Assembly (NCBI RefSeq): GCF_003334255.1
Contig: NZ_QOWU01000138.1
DNA: 2,270 nucleotides
Origin: Escherichia coli
GTDB taxonomy: Bacteria; Pseudomonadota; Gammaproteobacteria; Enterobacterales; Enterobacteriaceae
Reading direction: 5' to 3' (one strand)
Shown here: positions 1-2,270 of the stretch, one piece after another
Layout of the letters: each line of letters opens with the position of its first letter
Position numbering within the stretch: the stretch's first letter is position 1
Translations under genes and position numbers: made by a program
Notes under the pieces: generated by a model
What the model was told of the DNA's origin: nothing
The model's input: only the letters and a program-made list of their open reading frames with translations
Database searches by the model: none

Positions 1-25
1 GTAAGCGTAAAGCCAATGCCGTCTG
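1..25. repeat. Left terminal inverted repeat (IRL) of the IS66-family element; inner boundary approximate
   Basis: The window starts with 5'-GTAAGCGTAAAGCCAATGCC..., the terminal motif typical of IS66-family inverted repeats. The inner extent cannot be fixed because the right inverted repeat is not in the window for comparison. Confidence 0.55.
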
Positions 26-85: not shown

Positions 86-520
86 ATGGATAAACCTACA
101 GACTGGCGCTCCGGAACCCGCCGGATATTTTCTAATGAATTTAAACTTCATATGGTTGAACTGGCTTCGAAACCAAATGCCAATGTTGCACAACTGGCCC
201 GGGAACATGGCGTTGATAACAACCTGATTTTTAAATGGCTACGCCTCTGGCAAAGAGAAGGACGTATTTCTCGTAGAATGCCTCCAACTATTGTAGGCCC
301 TACAGTATCACAATCTTTTCCGGCCTCTCCGACTCTGGTTCCAGTGGAACTTATCGACACCCCGCGCTGTGCTACAGATGCTCCTGCTCCGGAGGCATTA
401 TCAGTTGCTTGTGCAGCTTCCTGCCATGTGGAATTCCATTACGGTAAAATGATGCTGGAAAATCCTTCACCAGAGCTGCTCACGGTGTTGATCCGTGAGC
501 TGACCGGGAGGGGACGATGA
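86..520 (+). CDS. tnpA: IS66-family TnpA (orf1): small helix-turn-helix transposase accessory protein
   Basis: The six-frame track gives ORF 83..520, but 83 is a TTG. The ATG at 86 has GGAG 8 nt upstream and is the preferred start, giving 144 aa. The N-terminal region (RRIFSNEFKLHMVELASKPNANVAQLAREHGVDNNLIFKWLRLWQREG) resembles the HTH 'transposase_8'-type domain of IS66 orf1 proteins. The stop TGA overlaps the tnpB start. Confidence 0.85.
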   Translation: MDKPTDWRSGTRRIFSNEFKLHMVELASKPNANVAQLAREHGVDNNLIFKWLRLWQREGRISRRMPPTIVGPTVSQSFPASPTLVPVELIDTPRCATDAPAPEALSVACAASCHVEFHYGKMMLENPSPELLTVLIRELTGRGR

Positions 521-867
521 TTTCACTCCCATCAGGTACCCGTATCTGGCTCGTTGCCGGCGTTACTGATATGCGTAAATCCTTCAACGGTCTGGGGGAG
601 CAGATACAGCATGTGCTGGATGATAACCCCTTCTCCGGTCACCTGTTTATCTTCCGTGGCCGACGGGGAGACATGATTAAAATCCTGTGGGCTGATGCTG
701 ATGGTCTGTGCCTGTTCACCAAACGCCTTGAGGAAGGTCAGTTTATCTGGCCTGCGGTGCGTGACGGTAAGATATCCATTACCCGCTCGCAACTGGCAAT
801 GCTCCTCGATAAGCTGGACTGGCGTCAGCCAAAAACATCCCGCCTTAACGCACTGACAATGTTGTAA
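517..867 (+). CDS. tnpB: IS66-family TnpB (IS66 Orf2-like protein), 116 aa; function in transposition not defined
   Basis: ATG at 517 overlaps the tnpA stop (ATGA at 517-520) and is preceded by GGGAGGGG at about 503-510. Size and sequence (IWLVAGVTDMRKSFNGLGEQIQ...GHLFIFRGRRGDMIKILWADADGLCLFTKRLE) are typical of IS66 Orf2 proteins. Stop TAA at 865-867. Confidence 0.88.
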   Translation: MISLPSGTRIWLVAGVTDMRKSFNGLGEQIQHVLDDNPFSGHLFIFRGRRGDMIKILWADADGLCLFTKRLEEGQFIWPAVRDGKISITRSQLAMLLDKLDWRQPKTSRLNALTML

Positions 868-890
868 AAAACTCCTGACCGCATTATAAA
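862..890 (+). promoter_or_regulatory. Candidate sigma70-like promoter in the tnpB-tnpC spacer (TTGTAA -17 bp- TATAAA)
   Basis: Seen in sequence: TTGTAA at 862-867 (overlapping the tnpB stop codon) and TATAAA at 885-890 with a 17-bp spacer. The predicted transcription start would fall at about 896-898, at the tnpC ATG. No experimental support; hexamer match only. Confidence 0.18.
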
Positions 891-897
891 AACGGCC

Positions 898-2270
898 ATG
901 AGTCAGAAATACCTCATTCGCATCGCTGAGCTGGAAAGGCTGCTCTCTGAGCAGGCTGAAGCCCTCCGTCAGAAAGACCAGCAACTGAGTCTGGTTGAAG
1001 AGACGGAGGCCTTCCTGCGCTCTGCACTGGCACGTGCCGAAGAAAAGATCGAAGAAGATGAACGGGAAATAGAGCATCTGCGGGCTCAGATAGAAAAACT
1101 GCGCCGGATGCTGTTCGGAACCCGTTCTGAAAAACTGCGTCGTGAGGTTGAACAGGCTGAAGCCCTGCTGAAACAACGCGAGCAGGAAAGCGATCGTTAC
1201 AGTGGGCGTGAGGATGACCCGCTGGTTCCCCGCCAGTTGCGACAGTCGCGCCATCGTCGTCCGTTACCGGCACATCTCCCCCGTGAAATATACCGCCTGG
1301 AGCCTGAAGAAAGCTGTTGCCCGGAGTGTGGCGGTGAGCTGGATTATCTGGGGGAAGTCAGCGCAGAACAACTGGAACTGGTGAGCAGCGCCCTGAAAGG
1401 GATCCGCACAGAACGGGTAAAAAAAGCCTGTACAAAATGTGACTGCATCGTTGAAGCACCGGCACCATCCCGTCCGATAGAGCGTGGTATCGCGGGCCCG
1501 GGGTTACTTGCCCGCGTGTTAACGGGAAAATACTGCGAACACCTGCCACTGTATCGTCAGAGTGAAATCTTTGCCCGCCAGGGTGTCGAACTGAGCCGTG
1601 CCTTACTCTCCAACTGGGTTGATGCGTGCTGCCAGTTAATGACTCCGCTGAATGATGCCCTGTACAGTTATGTGATGAACACCCGCAAGGTTCACACTGA
1701 TGACACACCAGTAAAAGTACTGGCACCGGGCAGGAAGAAGGCGAAAACAGGATATATCTGGACGTATGTCCGGGATGACCGAAATGCCGATTCGCCAGAA
1801 CCTCCGGCGGTCTGGTTCGCCTACTCACCGGACCATCAGGGTAAACATCCGGAGCAACACCTTCGTCCCTTCCGGGGTATCCTGCAGGCAGATGCGTTCG
1901 CAGGTTACGATCGGCTGTTCAGTGCCGAACGTGAAGGCGGCGCGTTGACGGAAGCAGGATGCTGGGCTCATGCGCGGCGCAAAATCCACGATGTATATAT
2001 CAGTACCAAAAGCGCGACGGCGGAAGAAGCACTGAAACTAATCGGCGAACTGTACGCCATTGAGCACGAAATACGCGGGTTGCCGGTGTCTGAACGCCTG
2101 GCGGTCAGGCAAATGCAGAGTAAACCGCTACTGACTTCCCTGTATAAGCTGATGCAGGAGAAAGAACACACGTTATCGAAAAAATGCCGTCTGAGAGATG
2201 CGTTCCGGTATATCAGGAAGCACTGGGTTGCGTTGTGCAACTTCTGTGATGACGGTCTGGCGGAGGCGGA
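898..2270 (+). CDS. tnpC: IS66-family TnpC DDE transposase, 3'-truncated by the window edge (457 codons present, no stop)
   Basis: Open frame from ATG 898 to the window end with no stop, which is why it is absent from the ORF track. Translation begins MSQKYLIRIAELERLLSEQAEALRQKDQQL... (heptad, Leu/Glu-rich coiled coil). It has Cys clusters CCPEC (1315-1329) and CTKCDC (1429-1446), candidate catalytic residues in HTDDTP (1699-1704), QADAFAGYD (1891-1911) and EAGCWAHARRK (1951-1980), matching the IS66 transposase DDE signature. The antisense ORFs across this span are shadows. Confidence 0.92.
   Translation, partial: MSQKYLIRIAELERLLSEQAEALRQKDQQLSLVEETEAFLRSALARAEEKIEEDEREIEHLRAQIEKLRRMLFGTRSEKLRREVEQAEALLKQREQESDRYSGREDDPLVPRQLRQSRHRRPLPAHLPREIYRLEPEESCCPECGGELDYLGEVSAEQLELVSSALKGIRTERVKKACTKCDCIVEAPAPSRPIERGIAGPGLLARVLTGKYCEHLPLYRQSEIFARQGVELSRALLSNWVDACCQLMTPLNDALYSYVMNTRKVHTDDTPVKVLAPGRKKAKTGYIWTYVRDDRNADSPEPPAVWFAYSPDHQGKHPEQHLRPFRGILQADAFAGYDRLFSAEREGGALTEAGCWAHARRKIHDVYISTKSATAEEALKLIGELYAIEHEIRGLPVSERLAVRQMQSKPLLTSLYKLMQEKEHTLSKKCRLRDAFRYIRKHWVALCNFCDDGLAEA

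Follow-up and report, generated by a model that had tools for sequence, protein, structure and literature searches.

The IS66 Orf2-type protein TnpB of ISEc43 as a probable non-catalytic cofactor of transposition

The window analysed here, a 2,270-nucleotide stretch of Escherichia coli DNA, is the left part of ISEc43, an insertion sequence (IS) of the IS66 family whose second gene, tnpB, encodes a small accessory protein. We propose that TnpB serves the IS66 transposition machinery as a subunit with no catalytic activity of its own. It would be produced together with the helix-turn-helix protein TnpA, and the two would enable the transposase TnpC to recognise the element ends or the target, to assemble on them or to activate them, with TnpB perhaps acting through a conserved basic edge on nucleic acid or on a partner. 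Taken as a whole, from the assignment to ISEc43 through the cofactor role to the basic site, this explanation is on balance probable, and its parts carry different weight: the identity of the product as IS66 TnpB is virtually certain, its role as a required non-catalytic cofactor is one in which we have reasonable confidence, and a mode of action in which a basic patch engages nucleic acid or a partner is a tentative suggestion that could well prove wrong. In favour of this explanation we count the family membership, the identity and ends of the whole element, the ATGA coupling to tnpA, the adjacency to tnpC, the low ratio of nonsynonymous to synonymous substitution rates (dN/dS), the very large protein family, the single-domain structural model, the conserved residues and the high isoelectric point, together with the helix-turn-helix nature of TnpA, the leucine-zipper, zinc-finger and DDE domains of TnpC, the existence of natural TnpA-TnpB fusions among cluster representatives, the lack of any enzyme or defence family match, and the reported need for all three genes in IS679 transposition.

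Family assignment, selection and coupling of tnpB

The tnpB gene is intact, with 116 codons on the plus strand between an ATG at position 517 and a TAA at 865-867. A Pfam profile search, proposed as a check by an earlier sequence-only reading of the window that had classed the protein as an IS66 Orf2-type TnpB, places residues 9-106 in family PF05717 TnpB_IS66 ('IS66 Orf2 like'; E-value 3.6e-36, model positions 2-100 of 101), and the NCBIfam model NF033819 IS66_TnpB is matched at 119.1 bits, its curated cutoff being 50. The RefSeq label for the identical stretch is 'IS66 family insertion sequence element accessory protein TnpB', and PHROGs assigns the protein to a 'transposase' family. No second Pfam family was found even at E ≤ 10, and Pfam, NCBIfam and PADLOC returned no enzyme or defence family; TnpB also contains no nucleotide-binding motif, and the AAA+ transposition-subunit families of Pfam and NCBIfam were unmatched. 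Comparison with five homologues of 86-94% amino-acid identity gives dN/dS values of 0.05-0.17, which indicate strong purifying selection, and a search of 1.84 billion proteins, clustered at 50% identity, returned 13,023 cluster representatives matching TnpB at E ≤ 0.001. The protein is basic, with an isoelectric point of 9.73. The open reading frame is a genuine constrained gene and not a chance frame.

The same searches bear on the one reading that the gene name invites, namely that TnpB is an RNA-guided nuclease of the IS200/IS605 TnpB (Cas12-ancestor) type. The shared name is the sole point in its favour. Against it stand the length of 116 residues, the lack of any OrfB_IS605, RuvC or zinc-ribbon match in Pfam or NCBIfam (in Pfam even at E ≤ 10), the lack of any TnpB or Cas12 chain among the PDB matches of the sequence and of the profile (the PDB contains ISDra2 TnpB structures), and a predicted fold consisting of a single small beta-alpha-beta4-alpha domain. 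We consider this identity refuted by size, family searches, PDB searches and predicted fold, and its probability negligible, in agreement with the sequence-only reading, which had held the protein to be unrelated to the IS200/IS605 TnpB, far too small and devoid of RuvC-like motifs.

The stop codon of tnpA (TGA, 518-520) shares bases with the start codon of tnpB (ATG, 517-519), which puts tnpB in frame -1 with respect to tnpA. With GGGAGGGG at 506-513, the overlap makes up a layout typical of termination-reinitiation, and tnpA and tnpB are therefore most likely translationally coupled. To place the arrangement in context we used a synteny sample of the 80 best-scoring loci from other genomes, which share 54-94% identity with the query and come from Proteobacteria, Acidobacteria and Cyanobacteria. 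A stop codon lies over the inferred tnpB start in 73 of the 80 loci, 72 of these having ATG, GTG or TTG as the start; in 71 of 80 the overlapping stop (NTGA) ends an upstream open reading frame that has 80 codons or more, with a median of 144. Downstream, a tnpC homologue follows within 450 nucleotides in 70 of the 71 loci that have enough sequence, with a median of 37 nucleotides (mostly 15-86) between tnpB and the earliest start codon in the tnpC frame, and a tnpA homologue is detectable upstream in 61 of 71 loci. Within this clade tnpB almost always immediately precedes the gene for the DDE transposase. The tight coupling to tnpA and the retention of tnpB in canonical IS66 elements, as put forward from the sequence alone, are both borne out by these figures. 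The expression 'universally retained' holds good for canonical IS66 members only, as it had indeed been worded, the ISBst12 group of the family reportedly lacking both tnpA and tnpB. In IS679, the genes tnpA, tnpB and tnpC are each said to be needed for transposition.

Retention and selection also bear on a regulatory reading, according to which TnpB, alone or with TnpA, is a negative regulator that damps transposition in the manner of the small inhibitors and repressors of other IS families. In those families, a small protein whose gene precedes that of the transposase is often a regulator, and the role of the extra open reading frames of IS21 and IS66 elements has been described as unknown and probably regulatory (Dziewit et al. 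2012, PMC3281130). One would expect active copies to have lost an inhibitor often; tnpB, however, is kept next to tnpC in nearly all of the loci, and purifying selection on it is strong. In IS679, moreover, mutating tnpB reportedly abolished transposition and did not raise it, which argues against a purely inhibitory role. We regard the regulatory reading as decidedly improbable. The same description by Dziewit et al., together with a full-text literature search in which no mechanistic study of IS66 TnpB was found, upholds the earlier statement that its mechanism is undefined.

Predicted fold, conserved residues and candidate sites

Two AlphaFold models of TnpB were built, the first from 25 sequences, with a predicted local distance difference test score (pLDDT) of 75, and the second from 59 sequences including two distant subfamilies, with a pLDDT of 83.6, a predicted template-modelling score (pTM) of 0.77 and a core above 90 in pLDDT. 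A deeper collection of homologues, by word-indexed protein search, tblastn of up to 5000 plasmid records and a viral-contig scan, brought back mostly close relatives, and the only two distant subfamilies obtained came from second IS66 copies in the loci L080 and L053. The secondary-structure elements of the second model are beta1 (residues 10-16), alpha1 (23-33), beta2 (43-47), beta3 (53-59), beta4 (64-70), beta5 (85-88) and alpha2 (90-97), and the tail of residues 107-116 is modelled as disordered. TnpB is accordingly predicted to be a single compact and basic domain of the type beta-alpha-beta4-alpha. Its C-terminal tail would be disordered, and no catalytic motif can be recognised in it.

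Across the three subfamilies, residues D18, R20, F46, R50, K55, D60, G63, R70, W78 and L96 are invariant or nearly so, F46 and K55 being invariant and R50 nearly invariant, with R47-G48 replaced by Ala-Asn in the distant subfamilies. In strand order, the polar residues D18, R20, R50, K55 and R70, joined in this clade by R47 and K69, appear to lie all at one edge of the sheet, and we infer from this common location that they likely form a single, mostly basic site, which could receive a phosphate backbone or an acidic partner. The second, divergent IS66 elements from which the distant subfamilies derive encode TnpB at L080 2856-3209 and L053 7481-7867, both on the minus strand, with 29% and 37% identity to the query; the FRGRRGD segment of the query becomes FANRRAN or FANARRD in these copies, which shows the residues that are conserved family-wide.

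Comparison with solved structures gave no match at a meaningful E-value: the TnpB sequence retrieved three chance-level chains from the PDB and the 25-sequence profile two, and a Foldseek search of the PDB with the first model, the kind of comparison that had been suggested alongside the structure prediction, returned nothing at E ≤ 0.001. At the top of that list stood SH2 and YfiA domains (best E 0.043, TM score at most 0.47), and both were rejected as relatives. The SH2 matches largely disappeared with the better model, and R47, the candidate phosphate-binding arginine of an SH2-like domain, is replaced by alanine in the distant subfamilies; for a YfiA/HPF-like beta-alpha-beta3-alpha fold, Foldseek TM scores were 0.23-0.33 and the HPF C-terminal domain profile matched at E 1.2, which we take as chance.

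On a further structural reading, TnpB is a minimal and so far unrecognised pseudo-barrel member of the PUA-like (ASCH/EVE/YTH) fold, or an analogue of it. Its ligand, located at the ends of the element or in the target, would be RNA, single-stranded DNA or a base that is flipped or modified, and binding would license TnpC. The weak structural neighbours of the model with a pLDDT of about 84 are PUA-like reader domains, the predicted order beta1-alpha1-beta2-beta3-beta4-beta5 fits that fold, and the protein is basic and carries the conserved aromatic residues F46, F76, W78 and W102. The top Foldseek matches of the first model, by contrast, are not PUA-like, and matches inside one fold class are not independent of each other. 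Furthermore, Pfam searches with all 59 aligned members gave PF05717 only, apart from one member with a chance-level TruB_C match (E 0.08), and hhalign against the ASCH protein YqfB, its sequence checked against PDB entry 1te7, gave a probability of 0.3%; in the literature search, no paper naming the ASCH, EVE or YTH fold families was found that mentions IS66. We therefore consider a PUA-like reader rather unlikely; were it true, TnpB, which ranks among the most abundant orphan accessory proteins of insertion sequences, would be tied to the base-reader fold of modification-dependent restriction enzymes.

The only specific published proposal that we found for TnpB concerns the beta sliding clamp. 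On this account the segment Q92-LAMLL97 is a clamp-binding motif through which TnpB tethers the transpososome to the replication fork, biasing target choice or timing. Gomez et al. 2014 reported strong beta-binding motifs either in IS66a TnpB, in TnpC or in both of them, and showed that peptides derived from TnpC bind E. coli beta (PMC3971601). The segment reads QLSMLL or QLAMLL in 76 of the 80 loci, one residue off the consensus QLSLF/L, and any such motif (pattern Q-hydrophobic-x-hydrophobic-hydrophobic) is present in only 10 of the 74 neighbouring TnpC N-termini. On the other hand, the peptides assayed in that work came from TnpC and none from TnpB; known clamp motifs occupy flexible, peptide-like ends (PMC3971601), whereas the TnpB segment is, in both models, a confidently predicted helix directly after beta5, in which L93, L96, L97 and L100 are conserved with the spacing of a helical stripe, as is typical of a core-packing helix. 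Key positions are moreover changed in the distant subfamilies, position 4 being alanine in the L080-type sequences (QLNAL, QLDAL, QFDAL) and the first glutamine being glutamate in the L053 copy (EFALL). Given the helix stripe and the loss of these key positions, the constraint on Q92-L97 is most likely mainly structural, and we judge a clamp tether unlikely.

The cofactor role with a basic site therefore stays the explanation that we prefer, and several points weigh against it. The synteny figures come from best-scoring loci of at least 54% identity and so describe this clade, not the whole IS66 family. The clustering of the polar residues at one edge is deduced topologically from the order of the strands, a beta-alpha-beta crossover and then a meander. 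The TnpA-TnpB fusions could have arisen by frameshift mutation at the ATGA junction, and several of the other apparent fusions are clearly deletion or insertion chimeras.

The fusion or chimeric proteins with TnpB retrieved from the database are represented by P0253, P0222, P0226, P0163, P0176, P0223, P0137 and P0142. Some of these representatives are TnpA-TnpB proteins, P0137 is a TnpB-TnpC deletion fusion, and in P0142 an insertion junction has brought a fragment of a histidine kinase together with TnpB. Domain fusions were accordingly set aside as a weak functional clue, since several are such deletion or insertion-junction chimeras.

The element and the genes around tnpB

The extent of the element was established by comparison with a chromosomal copy of ISEc43 (L001). 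The window covers the left 2270 bp of the 2540-bp element, its base 1 being the first base of ISEc43 (base 3001 of L001), and the right end lies at base 5540 of L001. Both ends begin GTAAGCGT, in inverted orientation, and the inverted repeats that bound the element are of the GTAAGCG type; the first 8 bp are the same at the two ends and about 15 of 24 positions match by eye, the length of the repeat being approximate. On both sides of the element in L001 stands the 8-bp direct repeat CGAAAGGC, a target duplication, at 2993-3000 and 5541-5548. There, ISEc43 is inserted within an IS3-family remnant, beside broken iroN and iroE.

A megablast search of complete E. coli genomes found the whole window 100% identical in the E. 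coli plasmid NZ_CP060062.1, where tnpA is labelled 'transposase', tnpB bears the accessory-protein name given above and tnpC is called 'IS66-like element ISEc43 family transposase', the last being also its RefSeq product name. The window is matched in 3312 of the 5426 genomes, and in 2400 of the 5426 a match covers at least 80% of it, in keeping with the earlier remark that this copy shows nothing unusual. The tnpB gene belongs to ISEc43, a canonical IS66-family element with the order left inverted repeat (IRL), tnpA, tnpB, tnpC, right inverted repeat (IRR), and the three co-oriented plus-strand genes occupy 86-520, 517-867 and 898 onward past the window end (Table 1).

Table 1. Features of the ISEc43 window, in window coordinates
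Feature	Position	Strand	Basis
Left terminal inverted repeat (IRL), starting GTAAGCGT	1-24	+	Comparison with the reverse complement of the right end in L001
tnpA, 144-residue accessory protein with N-terminal helix-turn-helix	86-520	+	Open reading frame; RefSeq coding sequence at L001 3086-3520; Pfam
Shine-Dalgarno-like GGGAGGGG, inside the tnpA end, upstream of tnpB; putative ribosome-binding role	506-513	+	Sequence
ATGA, tnpB start over tnpA stop	517-520	+	Sequence
tnpB, 116-residue IS66 Orf2-type accessory protein	517-867	+	Open reading frame; Pfam; NCBIfam; RefSeq; model
T17-D18-M19-R20, beta1/alpha1 junction; D18 and R20 invariant	565-576	+	Alignments A1, A2, A3
F46-R-G-R-R-G-D-M-I-K55, end of beta2, loop and start of beta3	652-681	+	Alignments
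Q92-L-A-M-L-L97, predicted helix alpha2, resembling the beta-clamp motif QLSLF/L	790-807	+	Models; PMC3971601
tnpB-tnpC spacer, 30 nucleotides	868-897	+	Sequence
tnpC, DDE transposase, full protein 537 residues, running past the window end	898-2270	+	NCBIfam transpos_IS66, 354 bits

Residues 11-60 of TnpA match Pfam HTH_Tnp_1 (E 2.7e-10), and the protein matches the NCBIfam IS66-type TnpA models at E 1e-18, under the model cutoffs. Its middle part (residues 69-115, window 290-430) is rich in proline and alanine and poorly conserved across loci, and in tblastn searches often just the helix-turn-helix region and the final ~30 residues align, which suggests that a flexible linker joins the helix-turn-helix to a conserved C-terminal segment, the end of which coincides with the tnpB start. 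The full TnpC of L001 comprises, by Pfam, the domains LZ_Tnp_IS66 (residues 60-130), zf-IS66 (138-182), DDE_Tnp_IS66 (196-486) and DDE_Tnp_IS66_C (494-530). Upstream of the leucine-zipper domain, residues 29-33 (window 982-996) read QLSLV, a near-consensus beta-clamp motif.

A 240-residue antisense open reading frame at 532-1254 on the minus strand overlaps both tnpB and the beginning of tnpC; NCBIfam has no match for it, and it is probably a chance frame. In a promoter and terminator scan of bases 1-1000, signals stood at the level of shuffled sequence.

Significance and comparison with known systems

Elements of the IS66 family are very common, and to establish what TnpB does would close a gap in transposon biology that is real but narrow. 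The tnpB gene, the protein family, the gene arrangement and the question of a role for TnpB are already on record, and the copy examined here, a standard ISEc43 tnpB, itself adds nothing new. The addition made by the analysis is small and consists of a fairly confident fold model, a weak PUA-like lead and a set of residues that merit mutation.

Set beside the TnpB/Orf2 proteins of the IS66 family, such as those of ISEc43, IS679 and ISEc8, the 517-867 product has the same size, the same position between tnpA and tnpC, the same ATGA overlap and a full-length profile match, and nothing notable differs; copies of tnpB identical at the DNA level exist in E. coli plasmids and chromosomes. The likeness to the IS200/IS605 TnpB, in contrast, is confined to the name and to being encoded by an insertion sequence, the latter protein being a Cas12 ancestor of about 400 residues with a RuvC domain, a zinc ribbon and a guide RNA, features of which none is seen in the product of 517-867. 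In their genetic setting, IstB of IS21, MuB of Mu and TnsC of Tn7 are comparable, since they too are non-transposase proteins encoded beside a DDE transposase and reportedly needed for transposition; IstB, MuB and TnsC are, however, AAA+ ATPases of at least 250 residues, whereas TnpB carries neither a nucleotide-binding motif nor a match to such families.
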